Shown: positions 7,015 through 36,580, counted from the first letter of the stretch. The stretch is DNA of 36,580 nucleotides from Methanobacteriota archaeon (GCA_043821745.1 JBDRCL010000061.1:1-36580); one strand, 5' to 3'. Notes: generated by a model not told the origin, from the sequence alone. Program-made: numbers and translations.

Positions 7015-7767
7015 CTACTCCTTTGCGGGCTTAGCCTGCGGCTTTGGGCTTAAGCGCTTTAGGTATTTAGCTAAATCCACGTCGTTGAGCTTCTTAAATC
7101 GCTTTGTCTTTAAGGGTATGACGGCTATCTCCACGTTTTCCTCGCCGAACTCTCCCTCGATGATCATTCGCAACGCCTCCAGCGCCAGAAGAATGGCATC
7201 GTCAAGCGAAAGCGCCTCGTCGTACTTTCGCTCGAGGAAATCGGTTACCGTTGGAGCTCCGCCGCCTATCGCTTGACACTTGTACGCTGCCACGACCCCG
7301 CTCGGATCCGTTTCGAAGAGGTGAGGCTTCCTGTCGTCGACGCCGGCAATCAGGAGCCTGGCGCCGAACGGCCTGACCCCGCCGTGCTGAGTGTAGAGCT
7401 GCTTCGTGTCCCCGATGCGCTTGGCGAGGGCTTCCACGCTTATCATCTCGTCGTAGCGCAAACGGTTGACCTGAGCCTCGATGCGCGCGTGATCGATGAG
7501 CACGCGGGCATCCGCTATCAACCCGGAAGCTGCAGCTCCGATGTGCTCGTCCACTTGGAAAATCTTCTCGATTGACGTCTCTTCCACTAGTTTGCTCCTA
7601 ATTCTTTTCTCCGCAGCCAGAACCACGCCTTCATTTACCTTGACGCCCAACGCCGTAAGCCCGCGCTTGACGGCCTCTTGGGCATATTGAACCTGGAAAA
7701 GCTTACCGTCAGGACTGAAGACGGTTATCGCTCTATCGTAACCTGCACCAGGTGGAACAAATGCCAT
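7015..7767 (-). CDS. psmA: proteasome subunit alpha
   Basis: [34 protein letters not shown]. An A/T-rich TATA-like stretch (TTTAAAAAA on the coding strand) lies about 15-20 nt upstream of the ATG. Confidence 0.95.
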
Positions 7768-13021: not shown

Positions 13022-13078
13022 TATTCTTGTGGCGGGGGCTAATAAAATGTTGAGAGCTCAAGTTTTGGAAAATTTTTC

Positions 13079-13154
13079 CCTTATAAATAACGCCCCTTCA
13101 AAAGCTCGGTGTGACACACGTATATCATCCCCCTGAATTTTCTTCTTTATAAAC
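13079..13154. promoter_or_regulatory. divergent promoter region with two TATA-like boxes (TTATAAATA about 13081-13089; TTTATAAA 13146-13153)
   Basis: A/T boxes in an otherwise GC-rich spacer between divergent genes. The second box is about 35 nt upstream of the TTG at 13185. Confidence 0.3.
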
Positions 13155-13184
13155 AACCGCGCCGCAAATGCTGGACGGGGATAT

Positions 13185-13508
13185 TTGAAGCTGGTCCACT
13201 ATCAGACCCTCGAGGCCGTCGAGCCCGAGGAGCTGCGGCAACTGGTCAGGATCAAGGCTAGGTTCAACGGGGAGCGCGGTTTCTGGGAGCGCATCAAGCT
13301 TTGGCGCAAGTCCGACATTCTGGAGAAGCTGGAGCCGAGCGGCGCCAGGTGGGGTTTCACCCGGACGCGGGACGACGAGGACAGACTGCGGCTGGTGCTG
13401 ACCCTAAGGGAGATGTCGCAGGCCACGCCGAGGCTGACCTGGGTCCTCTGCGACGAGTGCAACGGGGGCAAGGAGGTCGTGCTGAAGGGCGGCACGGCTG
13501 TGACATAA
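13185..13508 (+). CDS. hypothetical protein (C-terminal CxxC)
   Basis: 107-aa ORF with host-like GC-rich codon usage and a TTG start. No recognisable family. Confidence 0.45.
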   Translation: MKLVHYQTLEAVEPEELRQLVRIKARFNGERGFWERIKLWRKSDILEKLEPSGARWGFTRTRDDEDRLRLVLTLREMSQATPRLTWVLCDECNGGKEVVLKGGTAVT

Positions 13509-13550
13509 CAACCCGAATACAATAGGGCCGTGTCGTTATGCCTCAATTGT

Positions 13551-13786
13551 TCAATTTGCACGCCTTTTTTCTATCATTCTACCTATGACGGCTGAGGCCA
13601 TTATAAGCCCAATCCAGAAAATCAAGACAAGTTGAAGCCCTACTATATCCACTTCCCAAGGTTTGGCTGGGGTCCAGTTATTGTGTTCAGGGTATGCGTT
13701 CCCCATTTTAGAGGAAAGCCGTACTCCACATGCACAAAATCGGGCCAATCGTATCTGAACCCATAAGTCAGACCGATAAATGCCAT
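13551..13786 (-). pseudogene. possible frameshifted small membrane-protein gene
   Basis: Two overlapping minus-strand frames. 13786..13643 reads MAFIGLTYGFRYDWPDFVHVEYGFPLKWGTHTLNTITGPQPNLGKWI*. 13748..13551 ends in a clear TM helix, WEVDIVGLQLVLIFWIGLIMASAVIGRMIEKRRAN*. A 1-nt shift near 13650-13665 would fuse them. Confidence 0.25.
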
Positions 13787-13905
13787 GACGAGAAAAGCAT
13801 TATAACGCCTGATTTCACTAAAAGGAGCTTCATGCTTGCGTATCGATGTTTCGAAGTGGAGGAAACATCAAAAAATTAAAATTTATATTTTTTTCTGGCT
13901 AAAGA

Positions 13906-13914
13906 TTATAAATA
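13906..13914 (+). promoter_or_regulatory. TATA-like box (TTATAAATA) for the rubrerythrin-like gene
   Basis: About 40 nt upstream of the GTG at 13953. AGGAGGG lies at 13941-13947, 5 nt before the start. Confidence 0.4.
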
Positions 13915-13952
13915 TGTAGAAAATGCAATAATCACTGAAAAGGAGGGATAAT

Positions 13953-31356: not shown

Positions 31357-32235
31357 ATGGTCGAGCTAGTGTTCCTTGGATCGGGAGGCGGAAGATTCCA
31401 GACGATCAACCAGTACTTCAAAACGGGCGGGTTCAGGATTCATGCGGGAGTCAATGTGCACGTTGACCCGGGACCGGGCGCGCTATTGCTTACGCACAAA
31501 TATGGGTTGGACCCTTCGGATTTGGATGGCATCGTCGTCACGCACTGCCACCCTGACCACTACACGGACGCAGAAGTTTTGATTGAAGCAATAGCACAGC
31601 ACATGGCAGCTGAAGACATAGGGAGATCCTTTGGCAAAAAAAGAGGCACATTTATCGGCAGCAAGAGCGTCATCGAGGGGGTCGGGAATTACGGTCCGGC
31701 AGTCTCCCGATACCACCAAACCAAACTCGAGAAACTAGCAGTCCTTGAGCCCGGGGAGAAATTTCAGCTCGGCAATATTGAAATCGAATCGATGCCGACG
31801 AAACACAGCGATCCAACTTCAATCGGCATAATATTCCGCACTGAAAAAGGAGAGATAGGTTACACCAGCGACACCCAGTATTTTGAGGATATCGAAAAGT
31901 ACTTCAGGGGAGTGCGGGTTCTTATAGCAAACGTCACGCGTCCGCTGTCGATGCGGATACCGTGGCATCTTTGCTCGGATGATTTTATTAAAATTTTGAA
32001 TAAGGTCAAGCCAGAGCTGGCCGTGATGATACACATGGGCATGTTGTTCCTCAAGCATTCGCCTTCGAAGGAGGCTTCCAGAATAAAATCGGAGACGGGC
32101 GTGGAGACCATCCCGGGGCAAGCCGGATTGAGGATTAATCTCGATGGGGAGATCAAAATAGTGCGTCCGCCAAACCAACCCACTCTGGAAGAGTTCGCCA
32201 AATTAAAAACGGAAAAATTCTCTAACGCACAGTAG
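31357..32235 (+). CDS. MBL-fold metallo-hydrolase
   Basis: VVTHCHPDHY (HxHxDH) and a GSGGG N-terminus. 292 aa. Confidence 0.75.
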   Translation: MVELVFLGSGGGRFQTINQYFKTGGFRIHAGVNVHVDPGPGALLLTHKYGLDPSDLDGIVVTHCHPDHYTDAEVLIEAIAQHMAAEDIGRSFGKKRGTFIGSKSVIEGVGNYGPAVSRYHQTKLEKLAVLEPGEKFQLGNIEIESMPTKHSDPTSIGIIFRTEKGEIGYTSDTQYFEDIEKYFRGVRVLIANVTRPLSMRIPWHLCSDDFIKILNKVKPELAVMIHMGMLFLKHSPSKEASRIKSETGVETIPGQAGLRINLDGEIKIVRPPNQPTLEEFAKLKTEKFSNAQ

Positions 32236-32271: not shown

Positions 32272-32328
32272 ATGGTCAACATGGCGGCTTCGAATGATTA
32301 TAACCCGCACGAAATCGAGCTGAAGTAA
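32272..32328 (+). other. 18-codon ORF encoding a ValRS-type N-terminus (MVNMAASNDYNPHEIELK*): orphan valS 5' exon or remnant
   Basis: Own translation. YNPHEIELK matches the Y-[DN]-P-x-E-x-E-x-K(W) start of archaeal ValRS. It uses host-like GC3-rich codons and stops (TAA 32326-28) exactly where the conserved Trp should follow. Confidence 0.55.
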
Positions 32329-32483
32329 AATTTTAGGTTTTCCCAAAATCCACTAAAATCTCAAACATCGAAAATGCGCTAACTTTCAAGGGCAAGTTAT
32401 TGAGAATTTACCAAAACTAATACTTTCGCGGCCCCTCCTCCGAAGTTGGTTAAATGTAAATCAAAATAATAACTGAGGCGAAG

Positions 32484-34094
32484 TTGTTGCTCTCCGTAAA
32501 TTTTTGGGATCTGCCACATCGGCGTACCTCCATTATCTTCTCTGAGGATTTTTCGCAGGTTATTCATAATACAGTGGCGAATTTGTTCGACAAAAATCTC
32601 ACCAAAGCGTCAAAAACAATTGGTATACCAAAAAGTCTTTTCTACCGCCTTGAGCAAAAAAGGCGCATTAGAATCGACAATCTTTTCAAGCTGCTAAATT
32701 TTTTAGGTGCTCGCGATTCAACATTTTCTACAAAGGCTGCCCAGAGACACTTAATTTGGATAGGACCAGCACATGGAAGAGGAATATCCAACCCTTGCTT
32801 TCCAATCGAGCTTCAGAACAATGCATTGGTGCGAACAGCCGCCAGAGCTTGTGGAGATGGGATTCTAACTAGAACTTATGGACTTCGCCATGGTTATGGA
32901 ACTATAATCTACTACGCAAAGGAGGATCCAGAACAGCTGCAAAACGCGATTGATGACGCCATCATTGCCTTTGGAGGAAATGTCCAAACATACAGGATTA
33001 ATTTCGGCAAGGACATCTACTTAGTTTACCCCACTGTCGTGCGTGATGTCTTGTTATTCGCAGGAGTGATGACAAGTCCAAAAGCAGAAAGCGAACGCGG
33101 CGTCCCGGAGTTTGTGATGAAAAGCGAAAAAGCGACTACTTGGGTTGCTTGGCTTCAACAAACGGGGGACGATGAAGGGCATGTTGTTTATCACCCGCAA
33201 CATAACCTATATGGCATCTACTGGCGTCGATCCACCGACATTACTGGACTCCTGCCTGGCATTGAGCTTAGGGCCGGGGAGCGGATTTCCATTCATATAT
33301 CATCAGACGACGTTCGGGAACACGTGGTAGGGCGATCACCGAAATTGATAGCCGATGAGCAGGGGCTTCTCAGTAGGCTCCGCATTACCTCCACAGTCAC
33401 TCCTTTGGAGATTTACCGAACTCTTAATGGAAAACTTCGGGTCAAGTGGCAACTCCGCATTAGCGGTCCTGATAACTTGATTCGATATGGTAGAAAAGTA
33501 GGGTTTCGGATTACGAGGAAATCAACCGCGCTAGCTAAAGCAATGGACCAATGCGTAAGTTACGAAAAAATTATCTTACCAATTCTTAACGACCTTCAAC
33601 AGAAACACGGCTACCTCGATGCAAGATCGGTATCAATGAGACTGGGCGGTTGCCTAGTTCCCCATTCAAACAAAACAACCATTTCCGGGTTGGTCGCTTT
33701 ACGAGAAATGTCCAAACGAGGCTATGTCCATAAAATAAGCGAGGGACGGTACATCAAAAAATTGAAGAAGTACATTCCATCAAGATACGTTATAACTAGC
33801 AAGGGAACAAGAAGGCTTAAAGAGATTTGCGACCAATTCCATTATCTGGATGAAAAGGTGGGAGGTGGTTCAGCGAATAAAGTGACAGCAGAAGTTCCGG
33901 CAGCTTACGATCCACTTGAGGCAGAACCAAAATGGCGGAAGAAGTGGAAAGAATTGGGTATTCACAGCTTCCGACGCGACGATTACGAAACGCCGACCTA
34001 TATTATCGATACCCCGCCGCCATATTCCTCGCAAGAGGGTGGAGCCGAGCGGGGAGTTCCACATGGGCACGGCGCTGAATTGGACGTACTTTGA
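32484..34094 (+). CDS. LAGLIDADG-like (double-motif) homing-endonuclease-type protein with N-terminal HTH and C-terminal winged helix; the ORF reads through into valS exon 1
   Basis: TTG 32484 has GAGG 5 nt upstream. HTH is [27 protein letters not shown]-like motifs are [14 protein letters not shown] (about 32830-32867) and [15 protein letters not shown] (about 33141-33185). Between and after them come the expected beta-strand/helix segments (...[18 protein letters not shown]). The wHTH is [18 protein letters not shown]...ITSKGTRRL. The last ~70 residues are the ValRS N-terminus plus out-of-frame read into intron 1 and exon 2. Low GC relative to its neighbours. Confidence 0.6.
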
Positions 34095-36580
34095 TATCGT
34101 CGCTCGCTATAAGCGGATGCGCGGCTTCAACGTGATGTTTCCCCAGGGATCCCCGTGAAGTGCTGTAACGGCATATTCATGGGCCTGAATGGGACTGTCA
34201 CGGGCTGCCCACCGAGGTCCAAGTGGAGAAACGCTACGGGATAAGAAAGGGCGACCTGCCGGCGGAGAAGTTCCGAGAGCTCTGCGTCAAGCTGACCAGC
34301 GAAAACATATCTCACATGCGAGAAGAGATGAACTCCTTCGGGTTTTCAATAGACTGGTCCACTGAGTACCGGACGATGGATCCGAGCTATTACGGCAAGA
34401 CCCAGCTTTCGTTCGTGCAGCTTTACAAGAAAGGGCTCATCTACAGGGGCGAGCACCCGGTCAACTGGTGCCCCCGCTGTGAGACCGCAATCGCGGACGC
34501 CGAGGTGGAGTACGGGGAGAGGAGCACCAAGCTGAACTACGTAAAGTTCAAGCTCGCCGGGGATGACGGGGCGTTGACCATTGCCACCACGCGTCCCGAG
34601 TACCTGCCGGCGTGCGTTGTGGTGGCGGTCCATCCGAACGACGAGAGGTACCGGAGATACGTCGGGGGAAAGCTCGAGGTCCCGCCATTCGGTCACGTCG
34701 TAGAGATTATAAAGGACACGGAGGTCGACCCTGGGTTCGGCACGGGAGTCGTGATGGTGTGCACATTCGGGGACAAGACCGACGTGCGCTGGGTGAAGCG
34801 CTACAAGCTGCCGGTCATCAAGCTGATCGATGAGAAGGGCGCGATGACGGAAGCCGCTGGAAAATATTCAAAGATGACGATGGAGGAGGCGCGACGCGCG
34901 ATAATCGAGGACCTGCGCGCGGCTGGATCGCTCGAAAAGCAGGAAGAGCTGCCGCAGAGCGTCGGTGTCTGCTGGCGCTGCAAGACTGTCGTCGAGATCT
35001 TGACGAAACCGCAGTGGTTCATGCGCGTGCTCGACCTAAACAAAAAAGTGGTCGAGGAGGCCAAACGCGTGAGGTGGGTACCGGACTACATGCGCACCAG
35101 ATTCGTCGACTGGACGAACTCGATGGACTGGGACTGGGTGATCTCGCGGCAGAGGATCTTTGCCACGCCGATCCCGGCCTGGTACTGCTCCAAATGCAGG
35201 GAACCGATAGTGGCTGAAGAGAAGCAGCTGCCGGTCAACCCTGCGAGGGACAAGCCGCCGGTCGAGAAATGCCAGAGCTGTGGCAACCAGAACTTCGATC
35301 CGGAACCGGACGTACTCGACACCTGGATGGACAGCTCGATAACTATCGCAGCTCATGCGGGATGGCCCGACATCGACCAACGTCTCTTCCCAGCCGACCT
35401 TCAGCCGAACGGGACGGACATCATCAGAACCTGGGACTATTACCTGATGGTCCGTCACCTCGCGCTACTGGGCAAGGCACCATACAAGACCGTGTTGGTC
35501 AACGGCATGGTGCTCGGAACCGACGGCAGGGCGATGCACAAATCGCTCGGGAATTACGTTGACAGCACAAAGGCCCGAGAGAAATACGGCGCCGATGCGC
35601 TCCGCCAGTGGGCGGCGATAGGGGCGTCGACCGGCTCGGACATACCGTTCACCTGGAAGGACGTGGAGTTCGGATACCGGTTCATGCGAAAGTTATGGAA
35701 CGCTGCCCGATTCGCCGGCCCGCATCTGAACTCAAAAGTTGCAAAGCTCGAGGTCAAAAAAATAAAGCTGACGCCCGTGGACCGCTGGCTCCTGAGCAGG
35801 CTCAACAGGCTGGTGAAGAACGTCACGGGATGGCTCGAGGACTTCCAGTTCAACCGTGCTCTCGGCGATATTCAAAACTTCGTATGGCACGAGCTCTGCG
35901 ACATGTACATCGAGGAAGTGAAGCACCGGCTTTACGCCGGCGACCGGACCACCGAAGCGGCCGCCTTCACCCTTTACCAGGCCATGCTGACTTCAGTCAA
36001 GCTCCTCGCCCCGTTCATACCTCACTTCGCCGAAGAAGTCTATCAGACGTACTTCGCCGGAGACCAGCAACTGCCGAGCGTTCACAGCTTCGGCTGGCCG
36101 GACGCCGACGAGAGCCTGATAGATGAATCCGCGGAGAAGCTCGGTGAAATTGCCAACCTTGCGATAAGCACTCTGCGGCAGTTCAAGTCCACGAGGAAGA
36201 TGGCCCTCAGCGCCGAGATACCAAAACTTGAGATCTACACGGCGAACAATGACGTCGCCAAACAGCTGAAGGAAATAAAAAATGATATCGCCGGCACCAT
36301 GCGGGTTAAAGAAGTTAAGATAATAACCAACAAGCCGGAGCTGAAAGAGCGCGTGCTCTCGGTGGAACCGAACCTGGCGAGGCTGGGTTCAAGATTGCGC
36401 GGCGACGTAAAGATCGTCACTGAGGCCCTGCGAAACGCCAAGCCGGAAGAAATCTCGAAACTTATGGGCAAGGGCAAAATGACCATAAATGAAGCAGGGA
36501 AAACCATCGAACTTTCAATCGAGGATTTGAAAATAGTCAGTGAACTGGAAAGCGAGGGTCACAAGGTCGAAGTCATCGAT
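33882..36580 (+). CDS. valS: valyl-tRNA synthetase, split by two BHB mini-introns (exons 33882..34025, 34045..34149, 34190..>36580; 3' end beyond window)
   Basis: Own three-frame reading gives (V)[47 protein letters not shown] | [35 protein letters not shown] | [18 protein letters not shown]...[21 protein letters not shown]...[16 protein letters not shown]...[12 protein letters not shown]...WFMRV...[17 protein letters not shown]...[10 protein letters not shown]...[11 protein letters not shown]...[11 protein letters not shown]... Exon 3 is an uninterrupted 797-codon frame to the window end; it is absent from the ORF track because it is edge-truncated. The start codon is uncertain (GTG 33882, or fusion to the upstream ORF). 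Confidence 0.88.
34026..34044 (+). other. 19-nt bulge-helix-bulge (BHB) intron 1 in valS
   Basis: Canonical hBHBh' geometry (see finding). Removal joins CCA UAU|CCG AGC, giving PPPY|PSGEFHMG in frame. Confidence 0.8.
34150..34189 (+). other. 40-nt bulge-helix-bulge (BHB) intron 2 in valS
   Basis: Canonical hBHBh' geometry (see finding). Removal joins CAG GGA|UGG GAC, giving FPQG|WDCHG in frame. Confidence 0.8.

Follow-up and report, generated by a model that had tools for sequence, protein, structure and literature searches.

The 5′ end of the valyl-tRNA synthetase (ValRS) gene, valS, of a Hadarchaeal archaeon, carried on a 36,580-nt contig (JBDRCL010000061.1; the whole contig is called the window, and its coordinates are used throughout), is preceded by an AT-rich block that encodes a protein with two LAGLIDADG motifs. 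With a probability of roughly 60%, the block is a free-standing LAGLIDADG homing-endonuclease gene (HEG) that drives a selfish cassette at valS, in a manner akin to 'collaborative homing'. The Hadarchaeal cassette appears to comprise a leader, the endonuclease gene, a replacement valS start (Shine-Dalgarno (SD) sequence and start codon), two bulge-helix-bulge (BHB) mini-introns that contain no open reading frame (ORF), and exons 1 and 2 of valS, which make up about the first 250 bases of the gene. A free-standing homing element is favoured because the gene is patchy among sister species, foreign in composition and conserved in its catalytic residues, and because valS has a mosaic 5′ end accompanied by orphan fragments; this reading also accounts for a degenerate copy in one lineage and for the fidelity of the wider protein family to one class of target gene. 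A sequence-only reading of the same DNA had offered three possibilities, namely a third, ORF-bearing BHB intron, a free-standing homing element that invaded valS, and a domesticated domain fused to ValRS. The evidence assembled here sides with the second, contradicts the first and makes the third unlikely. Not foreseen in that reading were the strict linkage of the ORF to the mini-introns, the inclusion of valS 5′ exons in the cassette, and the existence of a large archaeal family adjacent to aminoacyl-tRNA synthetase (aaRS) genes.

A double-motif LAGLIDADG protein with foreign composition

The ORF appears to encode a genuine double-motif LAGLIDADG protein flanked by a helix-turn-helix (HTH) module and a C-terminal winged helix (wHTH), an architecture already recognised in the sequence-only reading and on which profile searches, Pfam matches across the family and structure prediction with Foldseek comparison agree. 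The AlphaFold2 (AF2) model built from a 63-sequence alignment (predicted local distance difference score (pLDDT) 92, predicted template modelling score 0.88) places two α-β-β-α-β-β-α halves between an N-terminal helical HTH and a C-terminal winged helix, the halves running H113-123/E/E/H149-163/E/E/H184-192 and H217-231/E/E/H287-298/E/E/H329-339 (H, helix; E, strand). Its top Foldseek matches are TliVMA, PI-PfuI, PI-PkoII, PI-SceI, I-Tsp061I, E-DreI and I-OnuI (E-values of 8.5e-7 to 1e-3), and I-AniI is matched as well. An earlier AF2 run with 12 close homologues (pLDDT 66.6), which left half 1 unmodelled and gave wHTH matches with only weak ones to PI-SceI and I-CvuI, is superseded by the 63-sequence run. 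Searched against the Protein Data Bank (PDB), the family profile matches the intein endonuclease domains of TliVMA (6.7e-9), PI-PkoII (4.8e-6) and PI-PfuI (5.6e-4), and motifs 1 and 2, the most conserved stretches of the family, are profile-aligned to both LAGLIDADG motifs of intein endonucleases. The window protein itself has weak NCBIfam matches to intein-containing DnaB and aIF2 models and no PDB match by phmmer, while Pfam LAGLIDADG_3 is matched by 29 of 63 sampled family members, some of which also match HTH_3 N-terminally and wHTH families C-terminally. The HTH module is further supported by HTH_3 matches in six family members and by HipB and C.BclI profile matches at positions 34-85, and the winged helix by Foldseek matches to MarR, PadR and LmrR and by profile matches to the wHTH domains of AdcR, IclR, MntR and eS25.

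In the window protein each LAGLIDADG helix closes with an acidic residue and a glycine, D125-G126 and E231-G232. The motif 1 position is D or E in 154 of 155 aligned family members and the motif 2 position is E or D in all 162; acidic residues stand at both motif ends in 147 of 148 family representatives, and K200, Q226 and K346 are likewise conserved. Among Hadarchaeal copies of the ORF the ratio of nonsynonymous to synonymous substitution rates (dN/dS) is 0.11-0.19, which together with the conservation of the acidic pair indicates that the gene is functional and that its candidate catalytic centre is under selection.

In composition the block stands apart from its host. Positions 32329-33881 have a G+C content (GC) of 44.1%, compared with 54.8 +/- 3.7% in windows of the same length elsewhere on the contig (z = -2.9), so that the contrast given in the sequence-only reading (32-43% against 50-63%) had the right direction and an exaggerated size. 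GC at third codon positions is 0.76 in valS, a gene of 57% GC, and 0.44 in the ORF, and in all five ORF-containing Hadarchaeal genomes the ORF (0.39-0.45) lies below its flanks (0.47-0.55). That valS might itself be a foreign high-GC gene was ruled out, as valS is GC-richer than its surroundings in relatives that lack the ORF too.

The ORF frame of the window has no stop of its own; it runs in frame through the valS start codon (GTG 33882) and ends at 34092-94 inside unspliced valS. The homology of the family ends near 33836, and between there and 33884 the window is peculiar in its coding arrangement: translation of unspliced mRNA would end at 34094 and yield 536 aa, fully spliced mRNA would encode a potential LAGLIDADG-ValRS fusion, and relatives differ. 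It is very improbable that the ORF represents a genuine N-terminal extension of ValRS, its 466 residues being translated with the synthetase as one nucleic-acid-binding polypeptide. Such an extension would fit the stop-less ORF of the window, in frame with valS exon 1, and removal of both introns would indeed give a continuous ORF-ValRS frame. Among other Hadarchaeal valS loci (designated by L numbers), however, the ORF has its own stop 20-55 nt before valS in L001 and L009 and lies in another frame, overlapping the valS start, in L005 and L021, and in-frame continuity is thus a peculiarity of the window only. All 11 close homologues (63-72% identity, all from Hadarchaeota, 280-492 aa) stand alone, 15 related species lack the gene altogether, and valS retains a strong SD sequence (GGAGGTGG) with a GTG start at the conserved position, the equivalent in L005 being GGAGGTGAT plus GTG. 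The sharp compositional difference between ORF and valS also speaks against an extension, as does the lack of any aaRS domain in the long family members tested. The read-through from ORF to valS most likely arose when the window ORF incidentally lost its stop codon, and the fused, domesticated domain entertained in the sequence-only reading is accordingly disfavoured.

Mini-introns, patchy occurrence and a mosaic valS 5′ end

Inserts of 19 and 40 nt, both apparently canonical BHB introns, break the valS of the window into three reading frames. At exact frame-restoring boundaries each insert folds into the succession helix, 3-nt bulge, 4-bp helix, 3-nt bulge, helix, for which the chance rate per given site and length is 1.3e-4; the central helix (H) is paired at 4/4 bp at both introns in all loci with the ORF, and RNAalifold finds both motifs without prior information. 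Intron 1 (U CCUC-GCAA-GAGG GUGG AG) splits PPPY↓PSGEFHMG in the HIGH region, with a central helix CCAU/GUGG and an 8-bp outer helix built from exon sequence. Intron 2, which splits FPQG↓WDCHGLP, has H = CAGG/CCUG, h = UCCC/GGGA and the bulges GA↓U and AA↓U. In helix h of intron 1 a compensatory change from C-G to U-A consists of two synonymous exon substitutions (ACC/ACT and GGG/GGA; columns 6 and 46 of alignment A5), and since these co-varying substitutions keep the outer helix, the exon coding sequence is seen to be constrained by RNA structure. Lengths differ between lineages with the BHB kept (19 or 16 nt, or absent, for intron 1; 40, 41, 37 or 30 nt for intron 2), and intron 2 is present in every locus with the ORF. 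With its GNRA-capped 4-bp hairpin, the 19-nt intron is close to the smallest possible BHB intron. We infer that the mini-introns are spliced from the essentiality of valS and from an in-frame stop in intron 2 of L001. Programmed translational bypass of the T4 gene 60 kind was rejected, as GGA take-off and landing fail to give the WDCHG continuation that exact BHB excision gives.

The distribution of the ORF was followed in 21 Hadarchaeal valS loci, of which 19 came from a ValRS scan of GTDB species representatives, combined with contigs carrying close homologues. The ORF is present in five loci (the window, L005-7, L009, L001 and L022), L021 holds only a remnant, and the other 15 have no ORF and an uninterrupted valS. 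BHB mini-introns in valS follow the same division, being found in 6/6 lineages with the ORF or its remnant and in 0/15 without it. The ORF ends 144 nt and 268 nt 5′ of the two introns. The L021 remnant (L021:851-1014; UWMA-0211, DTYD01000095.1), about 45 C-terminal codons placed right after an AsnC-family gene, looks like a degeneration stage of a homing cycle; both introns are kept there and hence persist independently of the ORF. A role for the ORF as a maturase was rejected on the same grounds, and because remote members of the family adjoin intron-less aaRS genes. On the ValRS exon-3 tree, lineages with and without the ORF are interspersed. Comparison of syntenic valS loci, which the sequence-only reading had proposed, finds the block present in one and absent from the other of sister species such as L005/L014 (96.0% ValRS amino acid identity) and L009/L028 (91.0%); as further sister groups, L001/L022 pairs with L019 and the window with the L016/L013/L015 clade. 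The dN of the ORF is 2-2.5 times that of ValRS in close pairs and 0.8-1.0 times in distant pairs, a fall that suggests an ORF younger than the deep host splits.

The two members of such a pair differ in a way that points to replacement of the valS 5′ end. Between L005 and L014, flanks of 91-95% DNA identity enclose a replacement of 1505 nt (L005) versus 72 nt (L014), and differing sites make up 22.2% of exons 1+2 and 5.5% of exon 3, with 5/225 among the first sites past intron 2 (Fisher p = 4e-15). Trees of the 5′ segment group {L014, L028, L018} to the exclusion of L005 and L009 (299/300 bootstraps); trees of exon 3 unite all five in a single clade (60/60) and place L005 with L014 (49/60) and L009 with L028 (60/60) as sisters. 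In both sister pairs the sequence turns 'local' immediately 3′ of intron 2, and the left-hand limit seen in L005 and L009 falls just past a TATA-like element, GCTTTATAT, common to genomes without the ORF. Judged from these comparisons, valS exons 1 and 2 appear to belong to the cassette, with a breakpoint at intron 2.

A second trace of replacement is left by valS fragments upstream of the ORF. In the window the 57-nt mini-ORF encoding MVNMAASNDYNPHEIELK up to its stop resembles the N-terminus of Hadarchaeal ValRS, for example MKVTKDYNPHEVESKW in L009, and its homology to valS stops at the K↓W codon; the spacer that follows it ends in about 65 nt (about 32420-32483) that correspond to a leader, of about 75 nt elsewhere, conserved 5′ of the ORF in other genomes carrying it. 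The ORF opened by the TTG at 32484 has an N-terminus, NFWDLP, that homologues conserve. The orphan ValRS N-terminus with its stop, the spacer with stops in all frames and the GAGG-N5-TTG start had all been placed correctly in the sequence-only reading. The orphan of the window ends ...ELK, that of L001 ...DIYR and that of L022/L103 ...PKW, and all occupy the position of the valS start in ORF-less relatives, in the window about 40 nt past the MBL-fold gene. In L001 the orphan forms a 106-nt direct repeat, 75% identical (L001:5128-5233 vs 7372-7477), and a minus-strand M48 peptidase gene lies between orphan and ORF, while in L022 (~7608-7660) a different ORF (VILDMMGVIF...) continues the orphan N-terminus in frame. 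No orphan valS fragment was found in L005 and L009. In some lineages, then, the resident valS 5′ end appears to have been displaced rather than cleanly replaced, and the gap between orphan and ORF to gather variable cargo.

Two other explanations bear directly on these fragments. In one, the block would be a third BHB intron that carries an ORF, the orphan N-terminus being exon 0 and the 1.55-kb block being spliced by the tRNA-splicing endonuclease. LAGLIDADG genes are known from inside other BHB introns of Archaea, valS itself holds two bona fide BHB introns, and the orphan ...EIELK followed by valS ...PKW makes a plausible-looking junction. Yet a scan of 40,000 boundary pairs between orphan and valS start gave 17 loose BHB matches, at the chance rate of ~4e-4, none of which restores an in-frame ValRS N-terminus, and the same holds in L001; no BHB thus joins the ends of the block beyond chance. 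The N-terminal codons are moreover duplicated (DYNPHEIELK plus the valS copy), which is not a trait of introns, L005 and L009 carry the ORF without an orphan exon, the L001 block holds a gene on the opposite strand, and valS has its own SD and GTG start. This explanation, one of the three in the sequence-only reading, has hardly any likelihood left.

The other takes the valS 5′ end for a recombination hot spot that undergoes repeated illegitimate insertion, with the LAGLIDADG gene as passive cargo that may be active elsewhere and the mosaic as ordinary homologous allele exchange among related populations. The variable cargo between orphan and ORF (the M48 peptidase gene in L001, another ORF in L022) and the variation of orphan breakpoints between lineages agree with it, and ORF-less 5′ segments look exchanged too, L014 and L028 differing by 6.2% in the 5′ segment and 14.4% in exon 3 (p = 3e-4). 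Its account leaves unexplained the near-exclusive adjacency of ~210 protein clusters to class Ia aaRS genes, the conservation of the catalytic centre, and a breakpoint that coincides with intron 2 in two independent sister pairs, and a hot spot alone is improbable. In the ORF-less clade sister to the window, the interval from the MBL-fold gene to valS is taken up by a different gene, an aminotransferase (L016:2893-4245; also L013 and L015). The region upstream of valS is therefore a variable spot even without the cassette, as a hot spot would lead one to expect.

Table 1. Features at the valS 5′ end of the window, with domains and motifs of the encoded LAGLIDADG protein
Feature	Position	Strand	Remarks
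MBL-fold hydrolase gene	31357-32235		Upstream of orphan valS fragment
Orphan valS 5′ fragment	32272-32328	+	57-nt mini-ORF; stop TAA at 32326-28
AT-rich non-coding spacer	32329-32483	+	155 nt, 36% GC; stops in all frames
LAGLIDADG ORF	32484-33881	+	466 codons; TTG start preceded by GAGG-N5; no own stop
N-terminal HTH module, aa ~21-75	32544-32708	+	AF2 helices H21-34, H39-46, H51-57, H64-75
LAGLIDADG motif 1 (AARACGDG), aa 119-126	32838-32861	+	Candidate catalytic D125
LAGLIDADG motif 2, aa 223-232	33150-33179	+	Candidate catalytic E231
C-terminal winged helix (MarR/PadR-like), aa ~344-458	33513-33857	+	Foldseek and profile matches
valS ribosome-binding site and start codon	33861-33884	+	GGAGGTGG at 33861-68, GTG at 33882-84; embedded in 3′ end of ORF frame
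valS exon 1	33882-34025	+	Ends ...IDTPPPY; putative cassette part, history unlike exon 3
Mini-intron 1	34026-34044	+	19 nt; predicted canonical hBHBh′ motif
valS exon 2	34045-34149	+	Putative cassette part
Mini-intron 2	34150-34189	+	40 nt; predicted canonical BHB; apparent right-hand recombination breakpoint
valS exon 3	34190-36580	+	Runs off the window; vertically inherited host sequence, phylogenetic reference

Elsewhere in the window a second low-GC patch (~13060-13950; about 43% over 1.5 kb), free of long ORFs, lies between a nucleotidyltransferase-like and a rubrerythrin-like gene, and scans of the window for tRNAs and Rfam families gave no match. On L001 a second, unrelated gene of 257 aa with a Pfam LAGLIDADG_3 match (L001:227-1000, minus strand) is found about 5 kb upstream of the cassette, beside an AsnC-family gene.

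A wider family beside class Ia synthetase genes

The Hadarchaeal ORFs belong to a much larger group of HTH-LAGLIDADG-wHTH proteins. An exhaustive profile search returned 210 cluster representatives (50% identity), mostly of about 400 aa, which bear the source names 'hypothetical' or 'HTH domain protein'. Remote members were surveyed in 40 metagenomic loci (23-30% identity, searched with a 13-sequence alignment). A class Ia aaRS gene, encoding an archaeal-type leucyl-tRNA synthetase (LeuRS), a bacterial-type LeuRS or ValRS, lies within <=510 nt of the family gene in 35 of these loci, leuS being the usual neighbour, and in the other five the flanks are truncated. Relative to the aaRS gene the family gene is convergent in 13 loci, tandem and upstream in 15, and divergent in seven; two remote homologues had already been seen to be convergent with leuS, and the remote loci include L093, L099 and L110-L149. 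Family genes have a lower GC than their contigs in 27 of 32 loci (mean -5.2 points, p = 3e-6). Many of the remote contigs look DPANN-like, with 28-35% GC and an origin in groundwater 0.1-um filtrates. Beside one remote member, leuS shifts frame by -1 to -3 (L143:~1942-1948) with almost no inserted sequence; this is no BHB intron and may reflect a sequencing frameshift or a pseudogene. Some members are long, P0101 (1046 aa, Njordarchaeota) and P0066 (817 aa) having long N-terminal extensions of unrecognised fold before the HTH-LAGLIDADG module; Pfam searches of the long members (P0066, P0101 and others) found no aaRS or nuclease partner domain. In the literature, no paper was found that connects Hadarchaeota with introns in mRNA or LAGLIDADG proteins with leuS or valS of Archaea, or that describes such a family.

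Constancy of genomic neighbourhood is also what might be expected of a host factor. WhiA (DUF199) of Gram-positive bacteria combines a bipartite LAGLIDADG scaffold with an HTH, and the family could by analogy consist of domesticated LAGLIDADG DNA-binding proteins that have ceased to be mobile nucleases and serve as transcription or recombination factors for class Ia aaRS genes, contacting DNA with the HTH, a degenerate LAGLIDADG saddle and the winged helix; the linkage to introns would reflect no more than shared ancestry of the segment. We regard this as unlikely, if clearly less so than the other alternatives. It draws on the finding that 35/40 remote loci, from very dissimilar archaea and with LeuRS of either type, have leuS or valS next to the family gene, on strong purifying selection, on the additional HTH and wHTH domains, on a Foldseek match of the AF2 model to WhiA in an RNA polymerase promoter complex (PDB 8dy9 chain I, 7.5e-6), and on the TATA-like element found 5′ of valS in ORF-less genomes, which in L005 and L009 is followed directly by the ORF. 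WhiA and maturases have lost the catalytic acidic residues, and WhiA is vertically conserved. Here, by contrast, the acidic pair is kept in 147/148 representatives, and the gene is patchy, being absent from 15/21 Hadarchaeal loci, sisters with 91-96% identical ValRS included. The AT-richness relative to the host in nearly all loci does not fit a resident regulator either, the mixture of convergent, divergent and tandem orientations would be odd for one that binds an operator, and neither the mosaic valS 5′ end with its orphan fragments nor the persistence of valS and its introns after deletion of the ORF in L021 is anticipated. More tentatively than for the Hadarchaeal block itself, the ~210 clusters may be taken as an archaea-wide family of free-standing LAGLIDADG homing endonucleases specialised on class Ia aaRS genes (leuS and valS), one Hadarchaeal lineage of which would drive collaborative homing of BHB mini-introns and valS 5′ exons.

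A possible homing cycle, its parallels and its meaning

In a homing cycle consistent with these observations, the enzyme would cut a valS allele that lacks both ORF and introns and is carried by a different genome in the population, most likely at or near the insertion site of intron 2 (FPQG↓WDCHG) or, alternatively, around codon ~17, the orphan breakpoint. Homologous recombination would then mend the break, with exon 3 serving on the right-hand side and the upstream gene, the promoter or an orphan fragment of the valS 5′ end serving on the left-hand side, and repair would copy the whole cassette into the cut allele. The carrier allele would be immune in that mini-introns, diverged exon sequence or both interrupt the target, and the introns would be harmless, since the host tRNA-splicing endonuclease and ligase (EndA, RtcB) would remove them from valS mRNA. 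Alternatively, the introns might simply hitch-hike in the co-conversion tract.

Several observations weigh against a homing cassette. We infer DNA cleavage, the identity of the target site and the protective role of the introns from comparison of sequences, and for cleavage and target this limits the case. With the introns 105 nt apart, one 20-bp target cannot be interrupted by both, and immunity need not explain why introns and ORF occur together, as plain physical linkage could suffice. Co-conversion extends almost wholly to one side, which is unusual for classical homing. The aaRS genes adjoining remote members appear uninterrupted, with no introns, and in 13 remote loci the family gene stands at the leuS 3′ end, far from the conserved 5′ motifs. 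Neither viral contigs nor plasmids yielded relatives. The window protein has no Pfam match at E <= 1, and the HTH and wHTH domains and the WhiA match (7.5e-6) are compatible with a purely DNA-binding, regulatory role. Finally, the ORF tree is congruent with the ValRS tree, a point shared with the WhiA-like alternative, so that the ORF could have been gained once, anciently, and lost six or more times, although every loss would also require precise removal of both introns.

The closest parallel to the proposed cassette is collaborative homing in cyanophage S-PM2, where the endonuclease F-CphI is free-standing and psbA carries a group I intron without an ORF (Zeng, Bonocora & Shub 2009), as outlined in a later summary (PMC6083498). 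In both systems an endonuclease gene lies beside, not inside, an essential gene with an ORF-less intron; intron and endonuclease gene co-occur and are proposed to move jointly into intron-less alleles, and the intron is proposed to protect the carrier allele. F-CphI is Endo VII-like, whereas the present protein is of LAGLIDADG type with predicted cleavage activity; psbA has a self-splicing group I intron, valS two putatively protein-spliced BHB introns in the range of 19-41 nt; and the setting is an archaeal chromosome instead of a phage, with a cassette that also brings a replacement gene 5′ end. The free-standing T4 endonucleases SegF, SegG and MobE, which are known for intron-less or trans homing and for marker exclusion (PMC2790892, PMC2988022), offer a second parallel, being HEGs between or beside conserved genes that leave mosaic genes through flank co-conversion, with breakpoints near the HEG, and whose carriers are immune via differences in target sequence. 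Those enzymes are of the GIY-YIG or HNH type and act in phage co-infection, unlike a LAGLIDADG protein of cellular genomes whose association with class Ia aaRS genes has been kept over very large evolutionary distances.

Among LAGLIDADG proteins, the enzymes of archaeal rRNA BHB introns (I-DmoI, I-PorI, I-Tsp061I; PDB 2dch) share with the ORF product its fold (Foldseek, I-Tsp061I, 3.8e-4), its occurrence in Archaea and an associated BHB type of intron spliced by EndA. They differ in that the valS ORF lies outside the introns, which are minimal and ORF-less, in that the host gene is protein-coding, and in the added N-terminal HTH and C-terminal wHTH. In sequence and structure the core is closest to the Thermococcales intein enzymes (TliVMA, 7qsu; PI-PfuI, 1dq3; PI-PkoII, 2cw7), likewise double-motif monomers with extra DNA-recognition regions, from which it departs as a stand-alone gene with other accessory DNA-binding domains, no Hint/splicing domain and no in-frame insertion into a host protein. 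As for the introns, the BHB intron in cbf5 pre-mRNA of Crenarchaeota (Watanabe 2002; Yokobori 2009, PMC2738675) is also short, lies in an archaeal protein-coding gene and is present or absent by lineage, but no endonuclease gene accompanies it and nothing indicates that it has moved horizontally, while the two smaller introns of valS appear to travel with an endonuclease gene and exons. Relative to these systems, the novelty lies in the class of enzyme and the HTH and wHTH modules built onto it, in an archaeal cell as host, in aaRS genes as proposed targets, and in minimal, putatively protein-spliced BHB partner introns in an mRNA.

One consequence concerns annotation. Intron-containing valS is miscalled in public records (L009:3550-6318; L005:6634-6994; L001:7375-10080), with no gene in GCA_046761105.1, a 5′-truncated gene of 768 aa in GCA_012975005.1, and pieces of 83 and 814 aa in an ENA assembly. 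Such miscalled cassettes inflate the apparent loss or pseudogenisation of aaRS genes in uncultured archaea.

To our knowledge, BHB introns are extremely rare in archaeal protein-coding genes, cbf5 being the textbook case. An endonuclease gene and a breakpoint tied to two minimal BHB introns offer a specific and testable path by which introns of archaeal mRNAs could become mobile and, if the reading given here is true, would represent the first mechanism to carry tRNA-type introns horizontally into an archaeal protein-coding gene and to maintain them there. The family would then constitute a new group of long-target endonucleases, with potential as meganuclease scaffolds, and a new example of a gene drive aimed at the translation apparatus, set almost invariably beside leuS or valS in DPANN-like, Hadarchaeal and other archaea.

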